This document shows, one piece after another, positions 2,219 through 25,181 of a DNA stretch of 32,000 bases. Position 1 is the stretch's first letter. The number at the start of each line of letters is the position of its first letter. The notes under the pieces are model-generated. The model worked only from the letters and a program-made list of their open reading frames with translations, ran no database searches and was not told the origin of the DNA. Origin of the DNA: Planctopirus limnophila DSM 3776 (GTDB lineage Bacteria > Planctomycetota > Planctomycetia > Planctomycetales > Planctomycetaceae); assembly GCF_000092105.1 (NCBI RefSeq), contig NC_014149.1, positions 1 through 32,000 on the forward strand. Reading direction: 5' to 3'. Position numbers and translations under genes: made by a program.

Positions 2219-2622
2219 ACGGGAACAAACTCTGCTTTTGGCTGCTCGTGTTGGCTGGCACAGCGATCTTGTTTGCGGTCGCTCACTACACCGAGGCCAA
2301 CGACCGCTCTCCGTTGGCAGCACTCGATTGCCTGGAATGTGGTCATGGCGAGGATGTGCTCGCGGCTCTCGATACGCTTAATCGACCCGTGAGCAGTCAG
2401 CCGGTGATTGATCGTCAGGAGCTGGACTCGGTCTTGTCGATGCTTGATGCGCCGCGAGCGAGCAAGCCAACGCCTGGCACGCCACCCGTCAATGCGGCCA
2501 AGCCCAACCCTGTAACGCCTCCGCCGCCTCCAGTCGTCCCTCAGTACCTCAGGCAGCCGGTGTTGAATCAACCTCAGCTCAAGCTGAGATGCACTCGCAA
2601 CGGTTGCGTGTGGACGTACTGA
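2215..2622 (+). CDS. N-terminally anchored Pro-rich protein (spanin-like position; function unknown)
   Basis: ATGA overlap with the upstream gene. It has one N-terminal TM helix, a Pro-rich tract and C-terminal Cys residues. Its TGA stop is the first 3 nt of palindrome copy 1. Confidence 0.5.
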   Translation: MNGNKLCFWLLVLAGTAILFAVAHYTEANDRSPLAALDCLECGHGEDVLAALDTLNRPVSSQPVIDRQELDSVLSMLDAPRASKPTPGTPPVNAAKPNPVTPPPPPVVPQYLRQPVLNQPQLKLRCTRNGCVWTY

Positions 2623-2637
2623 TTTCTCCAGAAATCA
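2620..2637. repeat. Palindrome TGATTTC-N4-GAAATCA, copy 1 (spacer TCCA)
   Basis: Exact 7-bp inverted arms. It overlaps the stop codon of the 2215-2622 ORF and lies 10 nt upstream of the HNH start. Confidence 0.9.
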
Positions 2638-2647
2638 CGGGGGCCAC

Positions 2648-2950
2648 ATGCCCAACAAACCACCGACTTTTCGGGCACCTGCACCGAAGCGTAGAGAGCA
2701 GAGACCAAGCTCACACCAGCGAGGTTACACCCGTCAGTGGTCTGCCTATCGCAAGCGGTTTCTGTCACAGCACCCGCTGTGCGTGATGTGCCTTGGTAAG
2801 GGTCGATCAGTTCCTGCGACTGAAGTCGATCACATCATTGCCCATGGTGGCAACCAGTCCCTGTTCTGGGCGGCCAGCAATCACCAGCCATTGTGCAAGT
2901 CGCACCACTCAGCCAAGACCGTGGCCGAGGACGGCGGCTTTGGTCGCTGA
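2648..2950 (+). CDS. Phage HNH endonuclease (terminase-associated type)
   Basis: Motifs CVMC...VDHIIAHGGN...NHQPLCKSHHSAKT form an HNH/zinc-finger signature. Its position directly upstream of terminase matches HK97 gp74. Confidence 0.85.
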   Translation: MPNKPPTFRAPAPKRREQRPSSHQRGYTRQWSAYRKRFLSQHPLCVMCLGKGRSVPATEVDHIIAHGGNQSLFWAASNHQPLCKSHHSAKTVAEDGGFGR

Positions 2951-3081
2951 CCGACCAGCCACCCCCCCCACCCCCGGCCAGGGGGGGGAGGGGGGTCAAT
3001 TTTAGGGGTCGAACGAGTTGGCAAACCACACACTCTGGTTTTTGCGCGCGCCGTCAAGTTTTGCATAGGGGGGGGGTAACG
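2951..3081. other. Candidate cos/packaging-site region with a quasi-palindromic C8-A-C5-GGCC-A-G8-A-G6 block and a G9 tract
   Basis: Non-coding gap between the HNH and small terminase genes. C-runs at 2962-2975 face G-runs at 2981-2995 around GGCC. G9 lies at 3068-3076, just before the terS ATG. Confidence 0.35.
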
Positions 3082-3564
3082 ATGCCGAAGCGGGGCCCGA
3101 AGAAGAAACCAGCCGAGGCACATCTGGCCGCCGGGACATACCGGGAAGATCGGCATGCCACGATCAAGATGCCAGTAGATGACTTCCCGGAACCACCTGA
3201 TTGGCTCGGAGAACATGGCCTCAATGAATGGAGACGACTTCAGCCGATTCTGTCATCTCGCGGTCTGTTGACTGAGGTCGATTGGATGGCATTCTCACTC
3301 CTATGTCAGGCATGGCATGACTACATCGAAGCCACTCAAAAAGTCGCAGCAGAAGGCATCATCGCGATCGGCGGTGGCGAAAACGGATCCGAGTACCAAG
3401 CCCCAGCAGTCGGGGTCGCGAACAAAGCCTGGCAACGAGTCATCAAGGGGTGCCAAGAATTCGGCTGCACGCCCTCCGCGAGGACAGGCATCGTCCCCAA
3501 AGGTGGCGATGGATCCGAGGGTGAAGGATCGGATCAAAAGGCTAGAGGGGTTGTTGGGTTCTGA
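3082..3564 (+). CDS. terS: Terminase small subunit (P27-family-like)
   Basis: MPKRGPKKKPAEAHLAAGTYREDRH resembles the P27-family N-terminus. The gene precedes the large terminase. I discount the ORF extension upstream through the poly-G/C block. Confidence 0.8.
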   Translation: MPKRGPKKKPAEAHLAAGTYREDRHATIKMPVDDFPEPPDWLGEHGLNEWRRLQPILSSRGLLTEVDWMAFSLLCQAWHDYIEATQKVAAEGIIAIGGGENGSEYQAPAVGVANKAWQRVIKGCQEFGCTPSARTGIVPKGGDGSEGEGSDQKARGVVGF

Positions 3565-5182
3565 GCGACCCAAAGGCAAGCTCGAAAAGGCTTGCATCAA
3601 AAGACAGATCGATGATCTGAAACATGGCCATAAGCGAGGGCTGGTCTGGAATGAAGACGAAGCCCAGCGGGCTATCGACTTCTATCAATTCCTCTGCCAC
3701 TGGAAAGGGGAGTGGGCAGGCAAGCCACTCGACCTGGAGCTGTGGCAACAAGAGTTGATCATTGCTCCGATCTTCGGCTGGTATCTGCAGGACGGCAGCC
3801 GCCGATTCCGTACGGGATACATTGAGATCCCTCGCAAGAATGGCAAGACCACGATCGCTGCAGGCATCGCCCTGCGAGGTCTGACTGCCGATCTCGAAAG
3901 CGGTGCCGAAGTCTATTGTGCAGCGACAAAGCGAGATCAGGCCAAGCTGCTCTTCCGTGATGCGACGAACTTCATCCGCAAAGCCGAATATCTCAAGAGG
4001 CGGCTGAAGATCCAGAAGCATGCTCTCCTTTGCCCCAAGCTGAGCAGCTCACTGGTACCGCTGTCGAGTGATGCAAACACGCTCGATGGATTGAACCCAC
4101 ACATGACTGTTGTGGACGAGCTGCACGCTCACCGCACACGTGACCTGTGGGACGTCATGGCCACAGCCTCTGGCAGCCGGAACCGTTCTCTGCTGCTGGC
4201 GATCACAACGGCTGGTCACGACCGCACCTCCGTTTGCTGGGAGCAGCGAGATTACAGCCAAAAGCTGCTGACGGGATCGATTGAGGACGATAGCTATTTC
4301 TGCTTCATCGCATGTGCTGACGAGAAGGATGATCCCTTCGATCCGATGACATGGTGGAAGGCAAATCCCAATCTCGACATCAGCCTCAAGCGGACGTTTA
4401 TTGAGAATCAGGCCCGCAAAGCCAAGGCCTCACCCAGTTACGAGAACACCTTTCGTCGGCTGCATCTCAATCAATGGACTGAGGCTGAGACACGCTGGCT
4501 GAAGATGTCCGACTGGGCCAAGGCGGCTGAGGAATTTGACTTGTCCTGGCTGGTCGGTGAGCGATGCTTCGCGGGCCTTGATCTCTCCAAGGTCAACGAC
4601 ACGAGTGCCTTGGTTCTGGTCACTGAGATCGATGGCGACTGGTATCTCGTTCCGTGGTTCTGGATCCCGGGCGACAATGCTTTCCGTCGAGAGGCAGAGC
4701 ATCAGGTGCCATACACCGTCTGGCAGCGATCGGGACATATCCATTTCACCGATGGGGATGTCGTGGACTACAGCTGGATCGGCAAGACCCTCATGGAGAT
4801 TGCCGGCACGGTGCAGCTGGAGGGCGTTGCCTATGACCCGTACAACGCCAGCCACTTCGCTCAGCAGATGATTGGCGAAGGTCTGCCGATGGTCGAGTTT
4901 CCCCAGAGCTGGCGGAACCTGGCTGATGCGACCAGTGAGTTCGAGAAGCTCCTCGTCTCTGGCAACTTGCATCACAACAACAACCCGGTGTTCAACTGGC
5001 AGGCCGGGAATGTCTCAGTCAGGCGCAACCCTTCCGGTCAGATTAGACCAGCGAAACCAATGTCAGAGGACGCCAAGAAGATTGACGGGATTGCAGCTGC
5101 CATCATGGGTCTGGCACTGGCCACTCGTAGTCAGCAGGCATCACCATCGGTCTACGAGACACGAGGATTCGTCACGCTGTGA
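3509..5182 (+). CDS. terL: Terminase large subunit (HK97/Terminase_1 type)
   Basis: Walker A motif IPRKNGKTT, then YCAATKRDQA and a C-terminal nuclease-like region. The start at ATG 3509 is chosen over ORF start 3317 because 3317-3508 overlaps terS out of frame. Confidence 0.9.
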   Translation: MDPRVKDRIKRLEGLLGSERPKGKLEKACIKRQIDDLKHGHKRGLVWNEDEAQRAIDFYQFLCHWKGEWAGKPLDLELWQQELIIAPIFGWYLQDGSRRFRTGYIEIPRKNGKTTIAAGIALRGLTADLESGAEVYCAATKRDQAKLLFRDATNFIRKAEYLKRRLKIQKHALLCPKLSSSLVPLSSDANTLDGLNPHMTVVDELHAHRTRDLWDVMATASGSRNRSLLLAITTAGHDRTSVCWEQRDYSQKLLTGSIEDDSYFCFIACADEKDDPFDPMTWWKANPNLDISLKRTFIENQARKAKASPSYENTFRRLHLNQWTEAETRWLKMSDWAKAAEEFDLSWLVGERCFAGLDLSKVNDTSALVLVTEIDGDWYLVPWFWIPGDNAFRREAEHQVPYTVWQRSGHIHFTDGDVVDYSWIGKTLMEIAGTVQLEGVAYDPYNASHFAQQMIGEGLPMVEFPQSWRNLADATSEFEKLLVSGNLHHNNNPVFNWQAGNVSVRRNPSGQIRPAKPMSEDAKKIDGIAAAIMGLALATRSQQASPSVYETRGFVTL

Positions 5183-6813
5183 ACCCTTTTAACTTCGCCG
5201 TCAACACGTCGCAGGTGACCAACACGGAAGTCACTGGCAATCCCGAGAATCCCGCAGTGCCCCTCGATCCGGATGCGTGGGAGGATCTCGGATGGCTCGG
5301 CCGCATGACCGATGCCGGCGTACGGGTGAATCACGAAAACTGCATCGGTCACCCTCCACTTTGGCGAGCGGTCAACCTGATTGCCGGAGACGTGGCCAAG
5401 CTCCCACTCAATGTCTATCGCCGAACTCAAGGCGGTCACGAGCGGGACAAAGATCACCACGCCAACTGGCTGCTGAGGCACAAGGTCAACGACTACATCC
5501 TCAGTTATGTGTTCAAGAAAACCTTGACGTTCCACTCGCTGTTGCATGGGCAGGGATTCGCCTACATCCATCGCGAGGGCACAGTTCCCAAGCAACTCGT
5601 ACCGCTGAATCCTGAGACAACAGAGCCTGTCGTCATCGGCGGGAACTTGTTCTATGGCGTGACCATCAACGGAAATAAGCGACGACTGCACGCGACGGAT
5701 GTGCTGCACATCAAAGGGATCTCGTTCGATGGCATCGAAGGCATTGATGTCATTCAGGTCATGGCTCAGGCACTGGCTTTGGGAATCGCAGCCCAGAAGT
5801 ACGGGGCCAAGTTTTTCGGCTCCGGTGCTAAGGCGGGCGGAATCCTGATGCTGCCTCCGGGCCTGAAGCCGTCTGCCCGAAAGCAACGTGAGGAGGAGTG
5901 GAAGAAAGAGCAGGAAGGCCTCGACAATGCCTTCAAGTCCATGCTGCTGGAAGATGGTGCCAAGTGGATCCAGAACACGATCACACCTGAGCAGGGTCAG
6001 TTCCTGCAGACCCGACAGTTCGAGGCCATTCAAGTCGCCAATGTTCTTGGGGTGCCACCACACAAGATCGGCGACAATGGCAAGGTCTCTTACAACTCGC
6101 TTGAGCAGGAGAACAAGAGTTACCTGCAGGACTGCCTCGATCACTGGCTGGTCATGTGGGAGCAGGAATGTTGGGACAAACTTCTCACCGAGAACGAGAA
6201 GCGAAACGACACGCACTTTGTCGAGTTCAATCGGTCGGCATTGCAGCGAACGGATGAGAAGACAGAAGTCGAATCACTGGAGAGACAGGTCAACTGCGGG
6301 ATGCTGCTGCTCAATGAAGCGCGGGCGATCCGCAACCTGCCACCAGTGGAAGGCGGCGATCGGCCACGCATGCCCTCGAACATCATCTTCACCGATGCGA
6401 AGCAGCTCGAAGCGAAACCTGCGGCTGCCACCAATGCTGGGGAGAGAATCGCTCAGTCGATCCAGAACGCACTCAATGATCGGATCGATCGACTGCTCGA
6501 AGTGGAGCAGGCGGTTCGATCAAAGGCGAACTGCTCGATCGATCTGCTGACTCAGCATGGTCGCAAGCTGGCCAGTGCTGTGATTCCTGTGCTGGATATT
6601 TATGCCGCCAGCCAGGGCAAGATCCTTGACGCTGACAAGACCACGGCTGCCATCGTGGCCGATTGTGTCAGCTATCAGGCTGCAGAGAACTGGCACACGT
6701 CTCGACGCAATCATCTCGCCACCTTTTTGAAAGGCCTCGTGAATGGATCCCATCCTGAAGAAACTGGAAGAGCTGCGGGCGAAGCAGAACAAGCTGGCGA
6801 AACCCAGCCGTAA
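5179..6813 (+). CDS. Portal protein (HK97 family)
   Basis: GTGA overlap with the terL stop. The N-terminal PLWRAVNLIAGDVAKLPLNVYRR motif is portal-like, and the gene lies between terminase and protease. Confidence 0.85.
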   Translation: MNPFNFAVNTSQVTNTEVTGNPENPAVPLDPDAWEDLGWLGRMTDAGVRVNHENCIGHPPLWRAVNLIAGDVAKLPLNVYRRTQGGHERDKDHHANWLLRHKVNDYILSYVFKKTLTFHSLLHGQGFAYIHREGTVPKQLVPLNPETTEPVVIGGNLFYGVTINGNKRRLHATDVLHIKGISFDGIEGIDVIQVMAQALALGIAAQKYGAKFFGSGAKAGGILMLPPGLKPSARKQREEEWKKEQEGLDNAFKSMLLEDGAKWIQNTITPEQGQFLQTRQFEAIQVANVLGVPPHKIGDNGKVSYNSLEQENKSYLQDCLDHWLVMWEQECWDKLLTENEKRNDTHFVEFNRSALQRTDEKTEVESLERQVNCGMLLLNEARAIRNLPPVEGGDRPRMPSNIIFTDAKQLEAKPAAATNAGERIAQSIQNALNDRIDRLLEVEQAVRSKANCSIDLLTQHGRKLASAVIPVLDIYAASQGKILDADKTTAAIVADCVSYQAAENWHTSRRNHLATFLKGLVNGSHPEETGRAAGEAEQAGETQP

Positions 6814-7429
6814 GAATGCCGGCGAGAATGAGATCTACGTCTATGACGTGATCGGGCCTGCCGACTGGGGGTACTTCGGCGCAGCCACGATGAAAGATGA
6901 GCTGAAGAATCTGGGTTCTGATGTGACCGAGGTTGTCATCAGAATCAATTCTGTTGGCGGCTATGTGGGCGAGGCCTCAGCGATTTACCAACTGCTCAAG
7001 GAACATCCCGCCAACATCCACGTCAAGATCGATGGCGAGGCGATCTCGTGTGCGAGCTGGATCGCCATGGCTGGCGACAAGATCACGATTGCCGAGCATG
7101 GACTCATGATGGTTCATGACCCCAGCACATGGATCTCGGGGACTGCTGACGATCTCCGGAAAGAGGCTGAGGTGCTCGACTCGTACAAGGAAGTCATTGC
7201 CGGCATCTATGCGGCTCGCAGCGGCACAGACGTGGAGGACGTCAAGAAGATGATGTCTGACGAAACCTGGATGACGGCCACGCAGGCCAAAGATAAGGGA
7301 TTCGTTGACGAAATCTCGGCCAACAAGTCGAAGCCCGAAGCCACCAACTTCAAGGCTGTCCACATCGCGAACTGGCAGATGGAAAACATCCGCCGCAGGC
7401 AGCAGCTCATTGAAGCGGCCAACGCCTGA
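6743..7429 (+). CDS. Prohead maturation protease, ClpP-like (S14)
   Basis: Motifs INSVGGYVGEASAIY and GEAISCASWIAMAGD...MMVHDP match the ClpP-type serine protease pattern. It overlaps the portal 3' end by 71 nt. Confidence 0.85.
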   Translation: MDPILKKLEELRAKQNKLAKPSRKNAGENEIYVYDVIGPADWGYFGAATMKDELKNLGSDVTEVVIRINSVGGYVGEASAIYQLLKEHPANIHVKIDGEAISCASWIAMAGDKITIAEHGLMMVHDPSTWISGTADDLRKEAEVLDSYKEVIAGIYAARSGTDVEDVKKMMSDETWMTATQAKDKGFVDEISANKSKPEATNFKAVHIANWQMENIRRRQQLIEAANA

Positions 7430-7587
7430 GGCGCAACAGATCCGGTCAGGTTATTGACGAACAACTCCTGTCCTCCTGTCAGTGCAGAGCGTGCCCAGTC
7501 ATGCCGAGGCACTGGCAGGTGCTCACAGGTTGAGGCCAAGTCCTCGATCTGCGACGGAGCGATGATGCCACGTGTCCTGAGAGATGG

Positions 7588-8910: not shown

Positions 8911-8941
8911 TTTTGTGAAGCCGGTTCGCCGGCATGGATGA

Positions 8942-8979
8942 GGGGGCCAGGTTGAGGCCTGGCCCCCATTTCTCTTTCT
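8942..8979 (+). terminator. Intrinsic terminator after the capsid gene
   Basis: A 10-bp GC stem GGGGGCCAGG/CCTGGCCCCC (8942-8951 and 8958-8967) is followed by the T-rich ATTTCTCTTTCT. Confidence 0.75.
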
Positions 8980-8989
8980 GATCACTCAC

Positions 8990-9007
8990 TGATTTCTGCA
9001 GAAATCA
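8990..9007. repeat. Palindrome TGATTTC-N4-GAAATCA, copy 2 (spacer TGCA; perfect 20-bp palindrome 8989-9008)
   Basis: Exact arms. It sits between the capsid terminator and the next gene. Confidence 0.9.
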
Positions 9008-9042
9008 GCCTGACCGATTCACCCTGTCTGAGGATTTCCGCA

Positions 9043-9348: not shown

Positions 9349-9394
9349 TTGAAGGCCAAAACCCCAGAGTAAAGTTCGCGGGCGGCAATTCACC

Positions 9395-10949: not shown

Positions 10950-10950
10950 G

Positions 10951-11379: not shown

Positions 11380-11386
11380 GGTTTTC

Positions 11387-11800
11387 ATGAGCAACAAAGT
11401 CGCGTCCAAAGGTACCAAGCTGCAACTCTCTGTCGCCTCGGTCTACACCGATATTGGCGGGGTCAGCAAGATTGACTATCCCGATCGGGAAGTCGAACAC
11501 TGGGATGCCACCGACCTGGACTCGGATGAACGCGAAGATGGCGAACTGACTGGCCTGGTCACTCCCGGCATGATCAGCGGCGAACTCTTCTACGATCCCG
11601 ATGACGAGCTCCATCAGGAACTGGAAGATCTGCTGGCCACTCCGACCTATCGTGATTGGCGGATCCGCAAAGGGACGCGAGTCGTGACCGTCAACGGATC
11701 ATTGAAAAAGTTTCAGCCATCATCGGCTGTGGGCGATGGCATGAAGGCCACCTTCGAAATCAAGTGCCGCACGAAGCCCGTGATTTCCACCGTAGCCTAA
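11387..11800 (+). CDS. Major tail (tube) protein
   Basis: MSNKVASKGTKLQLS...WDATDLDSDEREDGELTGLVTPGMISGELFYDP resembles TP901-1/phi13-type tail tube proteins. The gene sits upstream of the chaperone pair. Confidence 0.65.
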   Translation: MSNKVASKGTKLQLSVASVYTDIGGVSKIDYPDREVEHWDATDLDSDEREDGELTGLVTPGMISGELFYDPDDELHQELEDLLATPTYRDWRIRKGTRVVTVNGSLKKFQPSSAVGDGMKATFEIKCRTKPVISTVA

Positions 11801-11872
11801 TCTTCGGATTGATCCCCAGACGCGACTCCATTTCGTTGTTCCATCACTGACGGTTTCCAGCAAGGTGAGTCC

Positions 11873-12651: not shown

Positions 12652-12990
12652 ATGTTCGCCATGCGGCTGGCTCTCGCCATGCGGCGGGTCGATGTCGACG
12701 CGATGCTGGATGAGATGGAACCGGAAGATCTGCGGGAGTGGCAGGCCTTCGCTTCGATCGATCCTTTTGACGAGGAGCGTGCCGATCTGAGGAACGGAAT
12801 TCTGATTGCGAATCTGGGGGCGATGCTGGCACCGTTCTGTGGCAGCCATCTGGCCGAGCTCAGGCCGGTGCAGTTCATGCCGTTCAGTCAGCAGTCAGAT
12901 GTGATTTCCACAGAAATCAGTGAGGAGCAGGAGCGGCTCAACTGGGCCAACCTGGAAGCGGCCGTGGCCATGATGTCCGACAGCAAGTGA
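12652..12990 (+). CDS. Tail assembly chaperone T-part (DUF4035-like), probably made as a G-T fusion by -1 frameshift
   Basis: LALAMRRVDVDAMLDEMEPEDLREWQAFASIDPFDEERADLRNGILIANL resembles the gpT/DUF4035 pattern. The ORF lies in the -1 frame relative to 12215-12634. Confidence 0.7.
   Translation: MFAMRLALAMRRVDVDAMLDEMEPEDLREWQAFASIDPFDEERADLRNGILIANLGAMLAPFCGSHLAELRPVQFMPFSQQSDVISTEISEEQERLNWANLEAAVAMMSDSK
12902..12919. repeat. Palindrome TGATTTC-N4-GAAATCA, copy 3 (spacer CACA), inside the gpT-like ORF
   Basis: Exact arms, translated as V-I-S-T-E-I-S. It lies 80 nt upstream of the tape measure start. Confidence 0.9.
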
Positions 12991-15616: not shown

Positions 15617-15649
15617 CGCAACGGTGCAGCCTCAGGTGAGGAGCTGAGC

Positions 15650-17374: not shown

Positions 17375-17377
17375 GCC

Positions 17378-18122: not shown

Positions 18123-18130
18123 GGTGTTCC

Positions 18131-18652
18131 ATGCCTGGAGTGATCTATCTCGACAATGATCTCGATGTTGTCGTCAGGGGTTTGAGACTGGCCGAGGACA
18201 ACTCGCCGATCAATGACGCCGAGTTGTATGTGGCTCTCGGCCGCAAGCTGATTTCTGGAGAAATCACAGCAGCGACGAACGCCACACCGATCGTCATCAC
18301 GAGCGCTGGCCACGGTCTCTCGAACGGTGACTCGGTGGTCATCATGAACGTGGAAGGGAACCTCGCAGCGAATGGTGGCTGGGAGGTTGCCAACGTCACG
18401 ACGAACACCTTCGAGCTGGTCGGCTCTGTGGGGTCCGCCGCGTATGAGGCCAGCGGCGTCTGGTATGCCGGCGTCACTGATGCGATCCACATTCCGCTCG
18501 AGAGTGAACCCGGGGAAGCCGGTCATTACCGCGGCACGATCCCCGGGAGCGTCAACATCAATCGCGGTGAGATGCTCGTGGAGCTGATCTACTGCCGAAA
18601 TTACCAACTGGGCTGGCAGCGCGAACTGCAGGGAAGGATCCGCACACGATGA
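18131..18652 (+). CDS. Virion-associated protein with an FCCH-like beta domain
   Basis: PIVITSAGHGLSNGDSVVIMNVEGNLAANGGWEVANVTTNTFELVGS is a motif seen in many phage structural proteins. Confidence 0.5.
   Translation: MPGVIYLDNDLDVVVRGLRLAEDNSPINDAELYVALGRKLISGEITAATNATPIVITSAGHGLSNGDSVVIMNVEGNLAANGGWEVANVTTNTFELVGSVGSAAYEASGVWYAGVTDAIHIPLESEPGEAGHYRGTIPGSVNINRGEMLVELIYCRNYQLGWQRELQGRIRTR
18249..18266. repeat. Palindrome TGATTTC-N4-GAAATCA, copy 4 (spacer TGGA), inside an ORF
   Basis: Exact arms, translated as L-I-S-G-E-I-T. This is the same reading phase as copy 3. Confidence 0.9.
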
Positions 18653-19029
18653 CCGCAGTGATGTTCAGCCAGGGAGCGGCCCGCAAGATCCGTACGGCGA
18701 CCGAGAGAGTTTTGGGGAAAGGGCCGCCGCCGCCAATCAACAGCACTCGACCTAGCCCGCTGCGTCCCGAGAACCGTTACATGGGGAAGTTCGTCACGTC
18801 CTTGGAGGCTCCGGAGATCGACCCGGAGATTGACCGCATTGTGCCGACGTCGGCCACGTTTCAGGTCTGGCTCCCTGATCCAGAGCAGCCCGACGTGCAG
18901 CTCATCCCCACTGACATCGAAATGCTGGTGTATAACTTCGACCCGAGTCTGACGGCCGAACCCGATATCTTCGGGAAGATCGAATATCTGAATGGCGTCT
19001 GGTCTCCCTATTGGGCCAGTTGCGAGTAA
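18649..19029 (+). CDS. Hypothetical protein
   Basis: ATGA overlap with the upstream gene. Confidence 0.5.
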   Translation: MTAVMFSQGAARKIRTATERVLGKGPPPPINSTRPSPLRPENRYMGKFVTSLEAPEIDPEIDRIVPTSATFQVWLPDPEQPDVQLIPTDIEMLVYNFDPSLTAEPDIFGKIEYLNGVWSPYWASCE

Positions 19030-19041
19030 AGGATTGCTGAG

Positions 19042-20178
19042 ATGGGACGCCCCTGTGCCTGCTGCGGTTGTCGCTGCACCCTCGAAGAGCGAAACGCGAA
19101 CGTCATGGAGGAGACGGATCTCGTCACCTTCCCGGCCTCAATCACCGGTAGCACAATCACAACGGCTGGCAATGAAGAAGATGGCAGTCCTTTCACTTAC
19201 AAATGCAGCAACACGCTTTCGCCAACGAATCATCCACCCAGTAGAGTCTGGACTCACGAGTATGAGACGGGGGCGATTTACAACGGAGCGTTATACGCCA
19301 GTTTTCCCTCGACAATTACCGCAGACCTGGATGGATCAGGATTCACCAGAGGGCCAGTTATCGACCTTGAATTTCTGGCTTCAACTGGCGTTCTTATTCC
19401 GAGCTCATGGGTTCGCTTCGATGGGTTCAGCTTTGGTTTCCCAACTTACACAGCGACTAGTCAATTTGTTTACGGTGGAACTCCAACAGCTATTGTCGCA
19501 GGACAGTTTTTCCCGGAACCGTTTGTTCCTGATGGTCATTCTCGATTGATTGATATTCGATGGGATCAAGCAGAATCGCGACACATCAGTCGAACTTACG
19601 ATGACGAGCCACTGGTTGAAAACTTCAGGTGGCTTTATTCGCAGTTCTATTCTTTCAACTTTACAACAGGTCTCTATGAAACTTCCGGCTCAATGACGAG
19701 CACCAACACTTATAGCCCCACGCTTATCGAAAGTGATGTCACTGACTTTTTCAATGAGTTGCGGCCGCTGGTTAAGCAAGGCGATCAGATTGGATACTTC
19801 GGAGCAGGGCCGACAATACACGCGACAAGCGGCATCTGGTCACGACTGTCAGTGAGCAACGTGTTAAGCGGAACAGTGATTCGCCCGAAAGCAACGCCAA
19901 CAGTCGGAACTGATTTTCTTGGAGCCTGGGAAAACTTCACGCTTGACCTCACGGAAGGAGCAGAACCTATTTATTTCGGACTTGGCTATTTCCGAATTGC
20001 TCCCACTCCAAAACCATTTGTGACTGTAGATATCGGCCCGCCTTCTGGTGGAGGCCCGTACGGTGCTGACACATTCACATTGAACTATTATCTCGACCAT
20101 GTCGTAGAACCCTGGACGTTCACGGACAACTTCGAATGGGACAGTGTCTGCGTCAAGCTGCTTCCCTCTGACGTCTGA
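19042..20178 (+). CDS. Hypothetical distal-tail protein, candidate receptor-binding module (Cys-rich N-terminus CACCGCRC)
   Basis: AAGGA Shine-Dalgarno. It is the last gene of the tail block. It looks more A/T-rich than its flanks by eye. Confidence 0.5.
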   Translation: MGRPCACCGCRCTLEERNANVMEETDLVTFPASITGSTITTAGNEEDGSPFTYKCSNTLSPTNHPPSRVWTHEYETGAIYNGALYASFPSTITADLDGSGFTRGPVIDLEFLASTGVLIPSSWVRFDGFSFGFPTYTATSQFVYGGTPTAIVAGQFFPEPFVPDGHSRLIDIRWDQAESRHISRTYDDEPLVENFRWLYSQFYSFNFTTGLYETSGSMTSTNTYSPTLIESDVTDFFNELRPLVKQGDQIGYFGAGPTIHATSGIWSRLSVSNVLSGTVIRPKATPTVGTDFLGAWENFTLDLTEGAEPIYFGLGYFRIAPTPKPFVTVDIGPPSGGGPYGADTFTLNYYLDHVVEPWTFTDNFEWDSVCVKLLPSDV

Positions 20179-20188
20179 TCGCGCAACA

Positions 20189-20208
20189 GTTGGCCTCATA
20201 ACGGGAGG
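20189..20208. repeat. Inverted-repeat partner of 1-20, containing hairpin GGCCTC-ataacgg-GAGGCC over the recombinase SD
   Basis: GTTGGCCTCATAACGGGAGG. The 6-bp arms are at 20192-20197 and 20205-20210. The GGGAGG Shine-Dalgarno of the 20215 gene lies in the 3' arm. Confidence 0.7.
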
Positions 20209-20214
20209 CCCACT

Positions 20215-21066
20215 GTGCTGCTGGCAGAAGCGATCGATCAATTCCTGAACCATGTTCTCGCGACGCGCAAGCCCGCGACCGAACGTCATTATCGGGAACG
20301 ACTGCAAGGCCTCCGGAAGCTGCACGGTACCAGCTCGATCGACTCACTGACGACATCCTCGATCGAGCAGCATTTCGCTCAGGCCAATCACTGGCCGGAC
20401 GGCAGGCCCAAGGCTCCCGATACCATCCGGGCCAACATCATTGCCTGGGAGCAGCTGCAGGCGTTTCTCCTGCAGGAGCAACTCATTCCGCAGGCGTTGA
20501 CGGGGGCGATCGCCAAGCCTTCTGGGCAGCTCAGGGAACGCCTTCCGACGAAGGATGAGATTGCCAGGATTCTGGCAGCCGCTGTCCCTGCCTTTGCTCT
20601 GATCTACCGGGCCTTGAGATTGTCCGGCTGCCGGCCAAGTGAGTTGGCCAAGGCGACCTTTGCCGACTGGGATCAACGTGAAGGAGTGATCAGCCTGGCT
20701 GACCACAAGACCGCAACGAAGTCGAAACGACCCAGACGCATCGCAGTGGGCGACAAGCTGCTGGAGTATCTGCGATTGGCGATCGGTGACCGCACCGAGG
20801 GGCCGCTCTTCCTGACCAGCCAGGGCAAGCCCTGGACTTCCGCCCGGCTTTCGCAAGAGTTCCGCAGAACACGCGAGCGGGCCGGTCTCTCGAAGGATCT
20901 TGTGCTGTATCTCACAAGACACGAACACGCCACCCAGTTGTGCGAGAAGCTCGATCTCAATGCGGCCGCCGAGGCCTTGGGTCATGCGTCGCTCAACACG
21001 ACCCGACGTTATCTCCACCTCTCAGCCAAGAAGCTGAAGGCCAATCAGGATCTCTTTGAGGAATGA
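20215..21066 (+). CDS. Tyrosine recombinase #1 (XerC/D-like phage integrase family)
   Basis: GTG start 7 nt after GGGAGG. Catalytic pattern: LSGCRPSEL (Arg), HKT (Lys), LTRHEHAT (His-x-x-Arg region), LGHASLNTTRRYLH (His and Tyr). Confidence 0.85.
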   Translation: MLLAEAIDQFLNHVLATRKPATERHYRERLQGLRKLHGTSSIDSLTTSSIEQHFAQANHWPDGRPKAPDTIRANIIAWEQLQAFLLQEQLIPQALTGAIAKPSGQLRERLPTKDEIARILAAAVPAFALIYRALRLSGCRPSELAKATFADWDQREGVISLADHKTATKSKRPRRIAVGDKLLEYLRLAIGDRTEGPLFLTSQGKPWTSARLSQEFRRTRERAGLSKDLVLYLTRHEHATQLCEKLDLNAAAEALGHASLNTTRRYLHLSAKKLKANQDLFEE

Positions 21067-21070
21067 TGTC

Positions 21071-21376
21071 GTGAAGGATTTCCTTTTCTGTTGGCTGATG
21101 AGCTTCATTGTGGGTTTATTGTTTGTAGCCTTCTGGATCGGCTGTTGGCTGTGGGTGTGCGCGATGGATCGTTGGCCAGTTGAAGCAGGCACGATAACGG
21201 TCGCTGTCATACTGGTCGTTGTCTCTTTCCTCATTGCTCTGGCCGTACGAGATCGAGGCGATGAACAGCAGGAACATGAGGATCGCTTTTTGAATTACCA
21301 GCAGCTTTGTGAGCAGCGGAAACAAGAAGGCAAACCACTGCCCCTACCTCCGATGCTTGATCGGACCCAGTGGTGA
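21071..21376 (+). CDS. Small two-TM membrane protein (moron-like; function unknown)
   Basis: Two hydrophobic helices followed by a charged tail. The start is uncertain: GTG 21071, ATG 21098, or the ORF-track TTG 21056. Confidence 0.45.
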   Translation: MKDFLFCWLMSFIVGLLFVAFWIGCWLWVCAMDRWPVEAGTITVAVILVVVSFLIALAVRDRGDEQQEHEDRFLNYQQLCEQRKQEGKPLPLPPMLDRTQW

Positions 21377-21383
21377 AGCCGAC

Positions 21384-21401
21384 TGATTTCCTCAGAAATC
21401 A
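21384..21401. repeat. Palindrome TGATTTC-N4-GAAATCA, copy 5 (spacer CTCA)
   Basis: Exact arms. It starts 7 nt after the stop of the membrane-protein gene. Confidence 0.9.
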
Positions 21402-21418
21402 GTGATTGAAAACAAGGT

Positions 21419-21450
21419 GGCCATGGGGATGCGTCAACACCCCCATGGCC
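21419..21450 (+). terminator. Hairpin GGCCATGGGG-N12-CCCCATGGCC (terminator-like, no U-tract)
   Basis: A 10-bp perfect stem, but no T-run follows it. Confidence 0.3.
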
Positions 21451-21632
21451 TGCAATCCGACCTGATCGCACAGGCCGGCTGCATTCGCCAAAGGAGCGGA
21501 CATGCAGCGGTATCCCTGTGCGCAAAACGTAGGTAAATCAGCAGGCCCGGGCGGTCTGCCACGTGGCCCTCCGGAAAAGATCGATCGACTCGCCGTCGTC
21601 TGGATCGATCATTCCGTTTGTGAGGGTTACCC

Positions 21633-22457
21633 GTGAGAAATCAAATTGTTTGCTGGTTTGGTAGTAAGGCTGCGCTTGCTCCCGAGATCCTTCCCGAGTT
21701 CGGGCCGCACAAGGCCTACTTCGAACCTTTTGCCGGTGGCATGGCGATGCTGTTGAGAAAGCCGCCTTGTCTCCGTGAAACCGTCAACGATCTGCACCAG
21801 GATCTGACCAACCTTGCCAGAGTGCTGGCTCATCCGATTGATGGAGCTGCCCTGTACCGTCGATTGTCACGCATGCTTTGCAACGAGCAGCTCCACCGGG
21901 AATCTCGTGAGCTGCTCGAACAGCCCTTTGAGCCTGGTCTTGAGCGTGCGGTCCACTACTTTTACGTGTCATGGATGGGGAGAATGGGCTCGATCGGAGC
22001 CAGCACCTGCAACTCCATGGCTCATGGTTACAAGACCAGCTCAAACTCTTGTTCGAGGAAGCTGCGAGCGGCGGTCGAGTCAATCAACGCATGGCGGAAG
22101 AGGCTGCGTGATGTGACCATAACAAACCGGGATGCGTTCACCTTGATCGATCAGCTCGGTGACGAGAGCGGTATGTTGATCTATCTCGACCCGCCCTATA
22201 TCGAGAAGAAGGGCAAGTATCATTTCGATCTGCGGCCGGAAGATCACGGACGCTTGGCAGATGCGGTCAAGCGGTTCAAGAAGGCCCGAGTGATTGTGAG
22301 CTATACCGACCATCCACAGCTCGCTCAGCTTTACCCGCCGGATCGATGGACAAAGCGAGTGCTGGTCCACAAATCGCAGACAAACAAGCTGGCCAAACGA
22401 GGGATTGTCAAGCCGCCTGAAGTGCTGCTTATCAACGGGCCATCCCTCTCCGCCTGA
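21633..22457 (+). CDS. dam: Orphan N6-adenine DNA methyltransferase, Dam/D12 class
   Basis: GTG start. Motifs: CWFGSKAAL (like the Dam WAGGK motif), FEPFAGGMAM (motif I) and IYLDPPY (motif IV). No adjacent restriction gene is visible. Confidence 0.85.
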   Translation: MRNQIVCWFGSKAALAPEILPEFGPHKAYFEPFAGGMAMLLRKPPCLRETVNDLHQDLTNLARVLAHPIDGAALYRRLSRMLCNEQLHRESRELLEQPFEPGLERAVHYFYVSWMGRMGSIGASTCNSMAHGYKTSSNSCSRKLRAAVESINAWRKRLRDVTITNRDAFTLIDQLGDESGMLIYLDPPYIEKKGKYHFDLRPEDHGRLADAVKRFKKARVIVSYTDHPQLAQLYPPDRWTKRVLVHKSQTNKLAKRGIVKPPEVLLINGPSLSA

Positions 22458-22517
22458 CGCTTGCCTGATCACTGAACAATTAGCCCAGCAATAAGTTCAG
22501 ACCGTTGCAGAAGATCA

Positions 22518-22564
22518 ACGGACTTTTAATCCGTAGGTCGAGGGTTCGAGTCCCTCCGCTCTCA
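22518..22564 (+). tRNA. 3' fragment of tRNA-Lys(UUU): anticodon arm, variable loop, T-arm and 3' acceptor strand only. Likely att core (attP or prophage junction).
   Basis: ACGGA-CTTTTAA-TCCGT anticodon stem-loop, GAGGG-TTCGAGT-CCCTC T-arm, acceptor CGCTCTC plus discriminator A. No complementary GAGAGCG 5' acceptor strand or D-arm lies upstream. Confidence 0.65.
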
Positions 22565-22714
22565 CTCTCGATCGATCTTTGAAACATCTGATACAGCGAG
22601 GGAATGAGGCCGTGTCCGTCAGGGCCACGGGATGCAGTAGCTGTGCTCTTAGAGCCTGAAAGGCTCCGTTGTTTGGGGCCATTGCATTTTCGAACCTCTT
22701 CCCCCAATGGCTGT

Positions 22715-22751
22715 CACCCCGCCGCTCAGCACCGGCGGGGTGTCTGCTTTT
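22715..22751 (+). terminator. Intrinsic terminator
   Basis: A 10-bp stem CACCCCGCCG/CGGCGGGGTG with an 8-nt loop, followed by TCTGCTTTT. Confidence 0.65.
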
Positions 22752-22905
22752 AGGCCCGGGTAGAACACCGGATTCGTAGTCCGGTGATCTACCAACCCAA
22801 TACAATGGGCAAAATGCGGTGAACAAGCTGGATGTTTACTTGCTGTTCTGAATAGATATGATGGCCTAGCTAAAGGTGCTGTTTTCACTCTTCACTAGGG
22901 CTCAC

Positions 22906-23475
22906 ATGAAAAGACTTTCCGGCTGCGCTGTCGTCTGCTTTCTCGGTCTCGTTGCGTTATGCATCATCCCTGCCATTTTCGCCAAAAGAGGTGGGCCCGC
23001 AACCAACAGAGTCACACCTCAGCCAGTGGGCCCAGCGAAGCCGGTTGATCAGTCGGATGTCAAAGTCATTCCCGGTTTAATGCCAGTGGATATCTACATG
23101 AATCTGACGAAGCAGGGATTCCTGAAACAGGGGCCTGTCGGTAGTCCACCCATGTGGAGACTCACGCGGGAATCAGATGGCGTCAAGATGGACGTGGAGA
23201 TCTTCTCTCCGGGCAGCATGAGCAGCGTGTCGTCGGTCAGAGCATTTTGTTTTTCGCCATCTGGCGTGCGAGTTGACGAGGCTGGGAAAATGCAGTTTCT
23301 CTTTCCTTACCTTGCCACACTTCCCTATCAAGGGGCCGAGCCGATCAAGGCACAAGAGTGGGTCATTGAGCATATGAAAACAGGGGGCGAGACGATCATT
23401 GGCTCGGTCAAGTTTGAGATTCTTGGGGCTGATAATGAGTTTTCACGGAGCCTGAGAATCAGCGTTGTCGAGTAG
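22906..23475 (+). CDS. Secreted or membrane-anchored hypothetical protein (moron-like)
   Basis: MKRLSGCAVVCFLGLVALCIIPAIFA is a signal/anchor sequence. The gene looks lower in GC by eye and is followed by its own strong terminator. The ORF track starts it at 22876. Confidence 0.5.
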   Translation: MKRLSGCAVVCFLGLVALCIIPAIFAKRGGPATNRVTPQPVGPAKPVDQSDVKVIPGLMPVDIYMNLTKQGFLKQGPVGSPPMWRLTRESDGVKMDVEIFSPGSMSSVSSVRAFCFSPSGVRVDEAGKMQFLFPYLATLPYQGAEPIKAQEWVIEHMKTGGETIIGSVKFEILGADNEFSRSLRISVVE

Positions 23476-23496
23476 CATTTCATTTGACGCTGCAGA

Positions 23497-23523
23497 AGCC
23501 GCTCTGACGAGCGGCTTTTTTTA
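23497..23523 (+). terminator. Intrinsic terminator
   Basis: AGCCGCTC-TGAC-GAGCGGCT stem-loop followed by a T7 run. Confidence 0.8.
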
Positions 23524-23756
23524 TTGCTTGACTTTCTTTGGCTCTGATGCTTTGATCATGCCCGCAGTCATCGGACTGCCACCCCGTCGAAAGGGTGAGA
23601 TAAACAACGTTCGACCATGACCTTCTTTGGCGTGCTCTCAGCTCGCCGGGATGCCGCGGCCTGGACGTAGCCTTTTGGTTTTTGTCAGGCCGGTTCCGTT
23701 CCCGTTGTTTCGGAATTTCGACCGGCTCCCGTGTTCCGCCGCTGAGTTTTTGCTGG

Positions 23757-23790
23757 CTACCTACATCGGCAGGCCCGCCCATGTAGGTAG
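23757..23790. repeat. Inverted repeat CTACCTACAT-N14-ATGTAGGTAG
   Basis: Perfect 10-bp arms in the non-coding region upstream of recombinase #2. Confidence 0.8.
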
Positions 23791-23795
23791 ATACC

Positions 23796-23835
23796 CACTA
23801 CGCACGCACAGTCTCAACTCTGTGCGTGCGTAGTG
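23796..23835. repeat. Inverted repeat CACTACGCACGCACAG-TCTCAACT-CTGTGCGTGCGTAGTG (lox/FRT-like architecture)
   Basis: Perfect 16-bp arms around an asymmetric 8-bp spacer, about 215 nt upstream of the ATG 24051 of the tyrosine recombinase. Confidence 0.8.
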
Positions 23836-24050
23836 CCCAGCTTTACCAAGCGGCATGCCGGCAGGTGATGATTCATCTGCACAAGGATGTCGTGCGCTCA
23901 TGCAAATTTTGAGCTATAGATCAGTAGGAGTCAGCTCCTCGCGACTGATCGAGAAGTCACTCACTCAGCCCGTCACGGATGGTCTTTTGGAATCGAGCCG
24001 GGTCGCTCCCGGTGCGGGCATTCCCATGTCCCAGGAAGTCCACGGAAGCC

Positions 24051-25166
24051 ATGCAGAACCAATTCACACTCACACGTTCACGGCCCGAACAGGCCCAGCC
24101 TCCACGCATCTTCAAGCTGGTGATCGACGACGATCAAGTCAGCTATGGAGACGCCCCGTTGTCAATCCATTCCACTCTGCGGGAATGCTTCGAGAAGGCG
24201 GTCTTGCCGGAGATCGAGATTGCCGAATCGACCATCATCGAATACGAGGCGATGCTCAACCACTGGGAACGCATCATGCGAACCGTGGGAGTGGGCACGA
24301 TCGACAAGGCCATGCTCAAGCAGTTTCGCGACCGGCTGGCCGCCGAACGCTGGACGCGATCGAAGCTGGCCAAAGCCACTGGAAAACCTCGATCGGCCGC
24401 CACAGTCAACAAGGTTATGCGGCACCTGAAGGCTGTCGTCATGAAGCTCTTCCCGCCCGACCGGCACAACCCCGAGGGGCTCGGCCTGGTACCGCTCTGC
24501 AAGTTCCCCGGGCGACTGGAGGAGCCTGCGAAGCTGCCCTTCACTTACAGCCGATCAGCGATGTCTGCTCTCTATCGAAATGCTCATGCGGCCAAGCCCG
24601 AGAAGACCACGCGATCGACGCCGCTCTATCGACCGGAGCTGTGGCAGCTGGCGATTGTGCTGGGCTTTGGCACTGGCCCGCGATCGTGGGACCTGCTCTC
24701 AATGACGTGGGATCGCATTGGCTGGGAGGATTTCAAGTATGGGTCGATCAGCTTCAAGGCTCAGAAGACAAAGAAGCTGCAACGCATCCCACTGAGTCAG
24801 GTCGCACGCCGGCATCTGGAAATGGTCCGCGACCTGCAGCTGCACGAGAGCGAGATCTTCCCCATGTTCCGCAAGACCAATCGCAGTGTCTATCGCTGCT
24901 GGCGACGGATCTGCCTGGCTGCTGGACTGATCTCACCCGAGGGCCGCAATGCTCACTTCGAGGATTTGCGCAAGACCTGCTCGACAGCCTACGACGACAT
25001 CTCGCCGGGAGTCGGTCCCTGGATTACGGGTCACGAGCTGCAGGGGGTCAACGCCAAGAATTACCAGAACCCCACGAAGCGCGTGTTGAAGGCAGTGAAG
25101 CAACTCAAACAACCGCTGGCATTTCGCGAAGGAGCCGGGCTGCTGAAGCCAACCACGCCCGAATGA
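24051..25166 (+). CDS. int: Tyrosine recombinase #2 (phage integrase family)
   Basis: ATG 24051 follows a GGAAG Shine-Dalgarno, although the ORF is open from 23979. It has an N-terminal SAM-like domain (YEAMLNHWERIM...LKQFRDRL). The C-terminal motifs are FEDLRKTCST and ITGHELQGVNAKNYQN, which supply the His and Tyr. Confidence 0.8.
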   Translation: MQNQFTLTRSRPEQAQPPRIFKLVIDDDQVSYGDAPLSIHSTLRECFEKAVLPEIEIAESTIIEYEAMLNHWERIMRTVGVGTIDKAMLKQFRDRLAAERWTRSKLAKATGKPRSAATVNKVMRHLKAVVMKLFPPDRHNPEGLGLVPLCKFPGRLEEPAKLPFTYSRSAMSALYRNAHAAKPEKTTRSTPLYRPELWQLAIVLGFGTGPRSWDLLSMTWDRIGWEDFKYGSISFKAQKTKKLQRIPLSQVARRHLEMVRDLQLHESEIFPMFRKTNRSVYRCWRRICLAAGLISPEGRNAHFEDLRKTCSTAYDDISPGVGPWITGHELQGVNAKNYQNPTKRVLKAVKQLKQPLAFREGAGLLKPTTPE

Positions 25167-25181
25167 TTTCTCTGGAAATCA
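25164..25181. repeat. Palindrome TGATTTC-N4-GAAATCA, copy 6 (spacer TCTG)
   Basis: Exact arms. The first 3 nt are the TGA stop of recombinase #2. It lies at the head of the early operon. Confidence 0.9.

Follow-up and report, generated by a model that had tools for sequence, protein, structure and literature searches.

The window analysed here (32,000 nt) is part of plasmid pPLIM01 of Planctopirus limnophila DSM 3776, a circular, siphovirus-like phage-plasmid of 37,010 bp. The 18-bp palindrome TGATTTC-N4-GAAATCA (TGATTTCNNNNGAAATCA) had six exact matches in the window, starting at 2620, 8990, 12902, 18249, 21384 and 25164, where the first-pass annotation had placed them. The full circle carried eight sites, seven exact and one with a single mismatch, two of them outside the window. 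All genes around the sites were on the + strand. The sites and neighboring features, with the counterparts in a MAG relative (86% DNA identity), were:

2620..2637, site 1, TGATTTC-TCCA-GAAATCA; its TGA is the stop of ORF 2215-2622, HNH gene 11 nt downstream; MAG 5963
8942-8967, strong capsid terminator, 5' of site 2
8990..9007, site 2, TGATTTC-TGCA-GAAATCA; intergenic, 23 nt past the capsid terminator, next gene 36 nt on; MAG 12322
12902..12919, site 3, TGATTTC-CACA-GAAATCA; in the Phage_tail_T chaperone ORF 12652-12990, phase xTG ATT TCN NNN GAA ATC; MAG 16236, identical arms, spacer CGCA
18249..18266, site 4, TGATTTC-TGGA-GAAATCA; in ORF 18131-18652 (173 aa), phase as in site 3; MAG 22617
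21384..21401, site 5, TGATTTC-CTCA-GAAATCA; intergenic, ORF 21056-21376 stops 7 nt upstream; MAG 25945
21419-21450, hairpin with a 14-bp stem, directly after site 5
25164..25181, site 6, TGATTTC-TCTG-GAAATCA; provides the stop codon (TGA) of the tyrosine recombinase 24051-25166; MAG 30503
31483 to genome 33477, + strand, parB (Plim_4296), 664-aa orphan ParB-family protein; window part 31483..32000
genome 32399-32416, site 7, exact, outside the window; inside parB, codons V-I-S-G-E-I-T
genome 36364-36381, site 8, one mismatch (GAAATCG), outside the window; inside gam

Shuffling the window gave 0.00 exact matches, and a scan with up to two mismatches found nothing in the window beyond the six exact copies (0.13 expected). 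The claim that the copies cannot be random thus stands. The six had only the 14 arm bases in common, their flanks being unalignable. On the whole plasmid the eight sites followed the pattern tgATTTC-NN|NN-GAAATca, the minimal core TTTC-N4-GAAA was confined to them, and the motif was the sole repeated palindrome. Gaps between sites were 3.1-7.2 kb on the circle, more even than random (P about 4e-4). Four of the eight sites lay within ORFs and two more overlapped stop codons, while the two largest non-coding regions, of 448 bp and 575 bp and the likeliest place for an immunity switch, had none.

The placement described in the first-pass annotation was recovered throughout: the perfect 20-bp palindrome around the second copy (8989-9008), the TGA stops supplied by copies 1 and 6, the capsid terminator ahead of copy 2, the position of copy 5 between a stop codon and a hairpin, and the identical phase of the intragenic copies 3 and 4. 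Within coding DNA, the sites fit only the I-S-x-E-I phase or a use of the TGA as stop codon, which would account for the phase pattern observed. Positional conservation, which had been suggested as a check, was found in the MAG relative, which kept all eight sites, with 112 of 112 arm bases unchanged (P about 3e-8) and varying spacers. These results support the earlier view that the copies, spread over a mobile element, act at the DNA level and would be bound by a symmetric protein dimer.

The motif was also traced in more distant genomes. Five further parB homologues, with 25-46% identity (loci L132, L102, L143, L145 and L194/L195), carried the exact motif inside the gene, and all five encoded a Gln at the position of Caulobacter ParB residue 173. 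Together with the window and the MAG relative, all seven genomes encoding a Gln-173/VISGEI(T/S) ParB had the exact motif inside parB, the chance of the DNA motif given the peptide being about 0.02 per genome under plasmid codon usage. Additional dispersed copies were seen wherever the contigs encoding these ParBs were long enough. Contig A had eight exact and one near copy in 34 kb, with a smallest intersite gap of 770 bp, so even spacing is not strict there. At least four copies each were found on contigs B and C, and two in 17.5 kb at L194. The parB of contig C was outside the loci fetched; one of its sites was at an integrase stop, as site 6. A related phage with a Thr-173 ParB (VASGELR) had zero motif copies in 22.7 kb. 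In a set of more than 190 viral loci collected for the motif, multiple copies were confined to this family and one unrelated segmental duplication. ParB was the only detectable protein common to all motif-bearing contigs covering that region.

The ParB-like gene starting at 31483, proposed earlier as a lead together with KorB, is now the best-supported candidate for the binder. The statement that the binder was not identifiable from the sequence is superseded, the plasmid's own ParB-family protein being the best candidate. Plim_4296 has a ParB_N domain (150-247, E = 2e-13) and an HTH_ParB domain (250-350, E = 3.5e-14), and its best solved relatives were Caulobacter ParB (6T1F, E = 7.5e-24), Spo0J and Noc. 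The residue aligned to R173 of Caulobacter ParB is a Gln, as in Noc, the equivalent of residue 201 is an Ala, and the permissive-Lys positions 179 and 184 are both occupied by Leu.

In PMC7383237, Q173 is shown to read the adenine at position 1 and R201 the cytosine at position 6; Lys at 179/184 was needed for Q173 function in the Caulobacter scaffold. The same paper gives parS as TGTTTCAC-GTGAAACA and the Noc-binding NBS as TATTTCCC-GGGAAATA. All eight pPLIM01 sites share this architecture, a 16-bp-class palindrome with the TTTC-N4-GAAA core two bases off the dyad; by these consensus sequences, the ATTTC of the motif and that of NBS have the same distance of two bases to the dyad. Judged from the sequence, the A at position 1 matches the Gln at 173, and an unread center would agree with the Ala at 201. 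The outer TG/CA bases were invariant in the pPLIM01 sites, and the available part of PMC7383237 gives no base contact at their positions. Locus L196 has a Gln at 173, yet carried a single NBS-like variant, TATTTC-N4-GAAATA, and no exact motif, indicating that a one-residue specificity code is incomplete.

Compared with the CTP-motif reference (GERRxRA and ENxxRxDL), box II of Plim_4296 reads GHTRAFAA and box III DNAKRKDL. The GxxR core is retained, and with the change from GERR to GHTR the catalytic Glu is lost, so that the protein may deviate in CTP hydrolysis or even in whether it uses CTP. No Pfam match to ParA/CbiA was found among the called genes of the plasmid, nor any ParA-like Walker A protein on the plasmid. 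The ParA-binding motif (L/F/I)G(K/R)G(L/F/I), as defined in PMC12704722, was absent by regex from Plim_4296 and its subfamily, with a positive canonical ParB control. Without ParA and this N-terminal motif, the classical partition mechanism is unavailable, and classical ParABS was rejected. No canonical parS was found on pPLIM01 within three mismatches.

We consider it probable, from sequence comparison, that the eight palindromes are specific nucleation sites (parS/NBS-like) of the orphan ParB-family protein Plim_4296 on pPLIM01. A ParB dimer would dock on each site via its HTH_ParB domain, the Noc-type Gln reading the adenine of ATTTC and, with Ala at 201, the central four bases remaining unread. 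By analogy with ParB, Noc, KorB and BisD, site binding would then lead the N-terminal NTP-binding domains to engage, and the protein may slide or spread from each site. With eight sites 3-7 kb apart, ParB would in this way coat the whole replicon. Most likely this would serve to position the plasmid-prophage, or to pass it on stably, with no ParA of its own, and a secondary transcriptional effect of ParB is possible.

That the same ParB acts instead as a KorB-like global silencer is possible but less probable. It would load at the eight sites, slide to promoters and keep the lytic genes off, partition being secondary or absent. Several sites are at operon or gene boundaries, the sites are spread over the whole element like the 12 OB sites of KorB on RK2, ParA is absent, and there is precedent for orphan ParB regulators of mobile elements (KorB, BisD). 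However, the only plasmid gene essential in TraDIS was WP_013112526.1, by accession order Plim_4288 and not parB. If one protein alone kept lethal lytic genes off, its gene would be expected to score as essential. The site-free state of the two largest non-coding regions also speaks against a silencer, and no KorA-like partner was identified. A sigma-70 promoter scan gave fewer matches than shuffles and thus carries no information on how the sites lie relative to promoters.

It is improbable that the sites are operators of another phage repressor, in a stoperator- or CIR-like network, with an incidental link to ParB. There are candidates for such a repressor: a 91-aa protein with weak HTH matches, divergently transcribed from the minus strand (genome 35958-36233), whose gene is about 130 bp from the degenerate site, and the Cys-rich Plim_4288, whose gene is the one on the plasmid scored as essential; there are, besides, many uncharacterized small early proteins. 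ParB was detectable in the distant contigs that bear the motif, but neither the 91-aa protein nor Plim_4288 was. The motif is fixed inside parB across the 25-46% identity homologues, and the half-site agrees with the ParB/Noc geometry and the Gln specificity residue. An immunity or early operator role was rejected, as no site occurs in the 448-bp and 575-bp regions and only the degenerate copy in gam is near the divergent region. The stoperator analogy of the first-pass annotation was not supported, and an L5/Bxb1-type network was rejected: the sites, as perfect palindromes, have no direction with respect to transcription, half are located within ORFs, two cover stop codons, and the main intergenic regions have none.

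A generic host repeat, or a host-protein site shared by the plasmid, is very improbable. The motif tracked the plasmid- or phage-encoded ParB subfamily across unrelated metagenomes, on contigs with a GC of 54% to 61%, and was absent from the related phage with a different ParB HTH. The IMG/VR background matches were single copies in AT-rich contigs (median GC 41%). An RNA-level element (a 7-bp stem with a 4-nt loop, acting as terminator, processing site or phage CsrA target) is hardly credible. The flanking genes are all on the + strand and every site is therefore transcribed, and the element has a CsrA homologue (26404-26613), which accompanies this ParB in relatives too. The hairpins, however, fold only weakly (-6 to -10 kcal/mol, four of six not clearly above shuffles), none of the six is followed by a U tract, the invariant arms never covary and have no G-U pairs, and the freely varying loops mostly lack the GGA that CsrA binding requires. 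A Rfam search gave no match at any site, and an intrinsic terminator or structured RNA, which would call for a GC-rich stable stem with U tract or for pairing-preserving covariation, was rejected.

The reading of the palindromes as Plim_4296 nucleation sites offers a testable pair for an orphan ParB on a mobile element, a named protein and a precise 18-bp candidate site. A recent survey describes orphan ParBs on mobile elements as common and of unknown function, and Noc as a parB duplication (PMC12704722). A Noc/NBS-like site together with the Gln, on planctomycete phages, bears on how ParB specificity diversified. The long phage ParB proteins (500-900 aa) form a clade of at least 150 clusters at 50% identity, about 70% of them with the Noc-type Gln, and are usually accompanied by a phage CsrA. 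The main genetic model among the planctomycetes has no plasmid other than pPLIM01, and a centromere-like site defined together with its binder could help to make stable vectors. The system would also show how a budding bacterium without FtsZ maintains a phage-plasmid. A more far-reaching version, in which ParA-independent loading of a sliding or spreading ParB clamp from evenly spaced, Noc-like sites over the whole replicon serves at once as an inheritance device and as a chromatin-like prophage silencer or insulator in an FtsZ-less budding host, appears unlikely; if true, Plim_4296 would be the first characterized member of this large, unstudied clade.

Among known systems, the stoperators of the mycobacteriophages L5 and Bxb1 are likewise short sites of one kind, dispersed in many copies over the genome of a temperate phage. 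They differ in their asymmetry, their orientation along transcription, their intergenic location and their binding by the immunity repressor; the pPLIM01 sites share none of these features. N15 is also a phage-plasmid, and the centromere palindromes of its SopB, IR1-IR4, occur naturally as four individual sites instead of a single array; the IR sites are dispersed over the genome and influence late genes. In contrast to pPLIM01, N15 has SopA (a ParA), its SopB is of type Ia, and its site, GTGCGACC-NN-GGTCGCAC, is unrelated and present in four rather than eight copies. BisD of ICEclc is a ParB-like clamp on a mobile element with a GxxR nucleotide motif and intragenic, palindromic bisS loading sites. 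These are just two, at a distance of 2 kb and unrelated in sequence, and BisD has an activator domain, BisC as partner and a neighboring ParA.

KorB of RK2 (IncP) is likewise a ParB-family CTP clamp of a mobile element, with its 12 palindromic OB sites dispersed element-wide. It pairs with IncC (a ParA) and KorA, binds a different site (OB = TTTAGCGGCTAAA) and has weak sequence similarity to Plim_4296 (8QA8, E = 8e-4); a regulatory role is at most putative for Plim_4296, and TraDIS argues against essentiality of the pPLIM01 parB. With chromosomal ParABS, whose ParB was the best structural-sequence match, pPLIM01 shares palindromic sites with a TTTC-N4-GAAA core and conserved boxes I and III. 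In B. subtilis a parS site is found inside parB (spo0J), as on pPLIM01. The differences are A instead of G at site position 1, Gln instead of Arg at residue 173, central bases that are probably unread, GHTR in place of GERR, the missing ParA and ParA-binding motif, and sites around the whole replicon rather than clustered near the origin, as parS is.

Noc, the nucleoid occlusion protein of Bacillus subtilis and a ParB paralogue, resembles Plim_4296 as an orphan ParB-family protein without a ParA partner, with many sites scattered over the replicon. NBS (TATTTCCC-GGGAAATA) has the ATTTC-N4-GAAAT core at the identical distance from the dyad, and Gln occupies the position of the adenine-reading residue in both. 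The central CCGG of NBS is not conserved in the pPLIM01 sites, and residue 201 is Ala in Plim_4296 but Arg in Noc. Also different are the invariant outer TG/CA of pPLIM01, the lack of the permissive Lys at 179/184, the length of 664 aa with unrelated N- and C-terminal regions, and the origin from a planctomycete phage-plasmid. To our knowledge the planctomycete host has no FtsZ, and Z-ring occlusion is therefore impossible as a role of Plim_4296. The first-pass annotation had spoken of an undescribed regulatory system. This wording is too strong. Any regulatory role is putative, and the system is most likely of an already known kind, in which a protein of the ParB family has parS-like sites dispersed over a mobile element, as represented by KorB, Noc, BisD and N15 SopB, and not a new form of regulation.

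Six exact matches to the 18-bp palindrome TGATTTCNNNNGAAATCA were found in the window (at 2620, 8990, 12902, 18249, 21384 and 25164), compared with 0.00 expected from dinucleotide shuffles, in agreement with the six copies of the first-pass annotation. Allowing up to two mismatches gave zero extra matches in the window. When the six copies were aligned with 50-bp flanks, the common bases were the 14 arm bases only. Thus, the repeated unit does not extend beyond the palindrome. The context previously described for the copies was also reproduced: copies 1 and 6 supply TGA stops, copy 2 is preceded by the capsid terminator, copy 5 is followed by a hairpin, and copies 3 and 4 share one reading phase.

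Joining the window to locus L128, which holds the rest of the replicon, gave a closed circle of 37,010 bp. The replicon is plasmid pPLIM01 (CP001745.1), and its ParB-like protein is named in NCBI 'parB-like partition protein (plasmid) [Planctopirus limnophila DSM 3776]', on a 37,010-bp record. By Pfam we recognized a siphovirus-type late region (HNH, TerS, TerL, portal, ClpP-type protease, major capsid protein), as well as a D12 adenine methyltransferase and a tyrosine recombinase. pPLIM01, reported as a plasmid and having a full virion gene set, is therefore a phage-plasmid. Almost all of its genes lie on the plus strand. The annotated phage and plasmid collections had no DNA match to the window. 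ParB protein searches of the annotated collections gave weak gut-phage matches and zero plasmid matches, PLSDB evidently being without pPLIM01.

The circle has eight sites, six in the window and two beyond it:

32399: site 7, exact, inside the parB-like gene
36364: site 8, one mismatch (GAAATCG), in the first codons of a Mu-Gam-like gene

The minimal core TTTC-N4-GAAA did not occur on the circle beyond these eight sites, and no other repeated palindromes were found in the genome. Around the circle, the gaps between sites were 6370, 3912, 5347, 3135, 3780, 7235, 3965 and 3266 bp; with eight points placed at random on this circle, the probability that no gap falls below 3135 bp is P = 4e-4. Four of the eight sites were intergenic or overlapped a stop codon, and four lay within ORFs, each of them in the phase xTG ATT TCN NNN GAA ATC. 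No site fell in either of the two largest non-coding regions (22458-22905 and 23476-24050).

Smaller repeats were recorded as well. An everted half-site pair, GAAATCA-N18-TGATTTC, was present in the window (11756-11762 and 11781-11787), and isolated heptamers beyond the full sites numbered ~3 per orientation, versus ~1.1 expected. The 10-mer CCTGCAGGAG or its complement occurred seven times (window 892, 15007, 20467, 20469 and 29566; genome 33994 and 35674), once forming the 12-bp palindrome CTCCTGCAGGAG. Its recurrence is probably a codon-usage effect (CTG-CAG-GAG).

Other features of the replicon were the following:

20215-21066 (+), window: tyrosine recombinase
24051-25166 (+), window: second tyrosine recombinase
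23855-25501, window: 548-aa ORF overlapping the second recombinase, with no family match
22498-22564 (+), window: full-length Rfam tRNA match, 38.6 bits, above the gathering score
26404-26613 (+), window: CsrA-family gene in the early region
35656-36233 (-), genome, beyond the window (L128 19051-19628): two genes (57 and 91 aa), the element's only ones on the minus strand

Both recombinases are encoded on a plasmid-maintained replicon. The 548-aa ORF is probably spurious, except for its last 73 codons, which were called as a gene. The 91-aa protein had weak sigma-70 region 4 and HTH matches and its gene is divergent from gam; this minus-strand region is plausibly an immunity or switch region. 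The tRNA match sits in a 448-bp non-coding gap after the methyltransferase gene, and has a good T-arm GGTTCGAGTCC and an anticodon-like loop, CTTTTAA. ARAGORN called no tRNA at this position. Possibly a degenerate tRNA lies here, or an attachment site of tRNA origin used by one of the recombinases. A CsrA-family gene adjoined or was near the long ParB gene in all the related phage contigs examined:

L069 1704-1868: CsrA-family gene
L144 5792-6058: CsrA-family gene
L146 11761-11970: CsrA-family gene
L194 3594-3788: CsrA-family gene
L196 7473-7673: CsrA-family gene

The sites are conserved at the DNA level and track one ParB subfamily. Positional conservation in related phages, a check proposed in the first-pass annotation, was found in a closely related contig of 38,083 bp from a Planctomyces MAG (L121 + L146), whose DNA is 86% identical over 30 kb. 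All eight sites were at homologous places, including the same one-mismatch variant, and 112/112 arm bases were unchanged (P ~3e-8), with different spacers. This relative had two additional methyltransferase genes (one N6_N4_Mtase, the other a second D12-like one) and a different 897-aa tail-fibre-like gene (L146 7684-8439, 15177-16337), and kept all eight sites despite these gene differences.

Homologues of the plasmid ParB with 25-46% identity were found in unrelated samples (loci L132, L102, L143, L145 and L194/L195). All had Gln at the equivalent of Caulobacter ParB residue 173 and the peptide VISGEI(T/S), and in all of them the exact motif lay in parB at the codons for this peptide. Given the peptide, the DNA motif has a ~2% chance under plasmid codon usage. 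Longer contigs had more copies. The IMG/VR contig 3300032242_002783 (37.9 kb) had eight exact sites and one near site in the 34 kb seen, their spacing not being strictly even (smallest gap 770 bp). At least four sites were found in 3300032242_002588 and at least four in 2881272144_000001, one of the latter again at an integrase stop codon, and two in the 17.5 kb of L194.

L144, a related 36-kb phage whose ParB has Thr-173 and VASGELR, gave zero matches within two mismatches in 22.7 kb, and L133, with a more distant ParB-like gene having His at residue 173, had no motif. In L144, GCCGCCG-N4-CGGCGGC occurred twice, and was set aside as GC-rich coding sequence of weak significance. The ParB of L196 had Gln-173 and IISGEIP, yet the site inside its parB was NBS-like, TATTTC-GGGC-GAAATA; residue 173 is thus not sufficient to specify the site. 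L196 also had two copies of CCGGGTTTTC-N4-GAAAACCCGG (GGTTTTC-N4-GAAAACC), 75 bp apart inside a gene (4603-4701), with the same TTTC-N4-GAAA geometry as the main motif and T in place of A. A weaker third copy was at 1533. Upstream of parB in L132, at a distance of ~1.3 kb, was a dense cluster (86-340) of another palindrome, GGGGGTCAA(n)TTGACCCCC, present at least four times within 250 bp; the cluster resembles an origin/iteron region or another operator set.

ParB was the sole detectable protein common to the motif-bearing contigs with that region covered. Among the IMG/VR matches listed, those outside the ParB subfamily were single copies on AT-rich contigs (median GC 41%), and the only other two-copy locus was L086, which we rejected as a second multi-copy locus, its two copies being a duplicated segment on an unrelated AT-rich contig. 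When viral contigs were scanned with the portal and with ParB as single proteins, no relatives were found, and an alignment-based scan gave nothing in viral contigs and two short distant loci only in metagenomes.

The plasmid ParB (Plim_4296, 664 aa) had a ParB N-terminal domain (150-247) and a ParB HTH domain (250-350). Its best solved relatives were Caulobacter ParB (6T1F, E = 7.5e-24), Thermus and Bacillus Spo0J, and Noc; the KorB match was weak. The AlphaFold model was confident only for residues ~100-285 (mean pLDDT 52). According to Jalal et al. (PMC7383237), the parS consensus is TGTTTCAC-GTGAAACA and the Noc site NBS is TATTTCCC-GGGAAATA, position 1 (G or A) being read by R173 in ParB or Q173 in Noc, and position 6 by G201 or R201. 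By comparison, the motif tg-ATTTC-NN|NN-GAAAT-ca puts ATTTC exactly at the NBS location. In the HMMER alignment to 6T1F, the plasmid ParB had Gln at the R173 position, the Noc solution for adenine, and Ala at position 201, fitting the unconstrained centre. The residue-173 comparison could have failed, because Arg would have predicted G at position 1. A caveat on the Gln-173 reading is that positions 179 and 184 are Leu in the same alignment, whereas Jalal et al. found permissive Lys at 179/184 to be necessary in the Caulobacter scaffold. The site geometry and Gln-173, together with the co-occurrence of protein and motif, suggest that ParB dimers bind the sites.

The family is broad. An exhaustive HMMER search gave 92 cluster representatives at E <= 1e-30. 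The best 150 matches listed were all long proteins (about 350-870 aa), many of them matching via the C-terminal region; 148 of these plus P0001, P0002, P0034 and P0035 formed an aligned set of 152. Gln was at the residue-173 equivalent in 107/152 members, and the ISGEI peptide in 38/152, 37 of these 38 having the Gln. PHROGs includes a full-length family, phrog_4715, labelled by similarity only.

No ParA family matched among the plasmid genes, and no ParA-like Walker A protein was found. The ParA-binding motif, as defined in PMC12704722, was absent from the plasmid ParB and its subfamily, and present in a canonical control. Canonical parS, NBS and OB did not occur on the plasmid. Box II was GHTR in place of GERR, with GETR in some relatives; the GxxR core is kept and the catalytic Glu lost. 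BisD likewise relies on the GxxR core.

With respect to function, we favour a role of ParB and its sites in the maintenance or positioning of the plasmid-prophage. As with ParB, Noc, KorB and BisD, binding to a site may allow the protein to slide or spread in an NTP-dependent manner; if so, with a spacing of 3-7 kb, the array would load the whole replicon. KorB-like silencing by ParB is a live rival, on which a sigma-70 promoter scan, with fewer matches than in shuffles, gave no information. A published TraDIS screen found one essential plasmid gene only, WP_013112526.1, which by accession order is Plim_4288, and not parB:

~28930-29205 (+), window: Plim_4288, small Cys-rich protein of ~90 aa, with no Pfam or PHROG match

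Possible roles for Plim_4288 are those of repressor, antitoxin or replication factor. Were ParB the only silencer of lethal lytic genes, it should have come out as essential in the screen; a partition protein need not, since selection acts on the transposon marker. The TraDIS argument is indirect, and therefore silencing stays in contention with maintenance or positioning. A stoperator-type network, as put forward in the first-pass annotation, fails on the symmetry of the sites, their intragenic placement and the empty main regulatory gaps. An RNA-level reading, as CsrA hairpins or terminators, was rejected: the hairpins are weak and without U tracts, the arms are invariant and not covarying, the loops are free and mostly without the GGA that CsrA requires, and Rfam had no match at the sites. 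Tyrosine-recombinase core sites were ruled out by reasoning (they need a spacer longer than 4 bp, and with eight of them dispersed the genome would be scrambled), a D12 methyltransferase or restriction target by the motif being without GATC and enriched, not avoided, and IS or MITE ends by the flanks not being conserved.

Mobile elements with dispersed palindromic sites for an orphan ParB-family protein are already known. New are this site sequence, its Noc-like reading, the absence of ParA, the even replicon-wide placement, and the setting in a planctomycete phage-plasmid.
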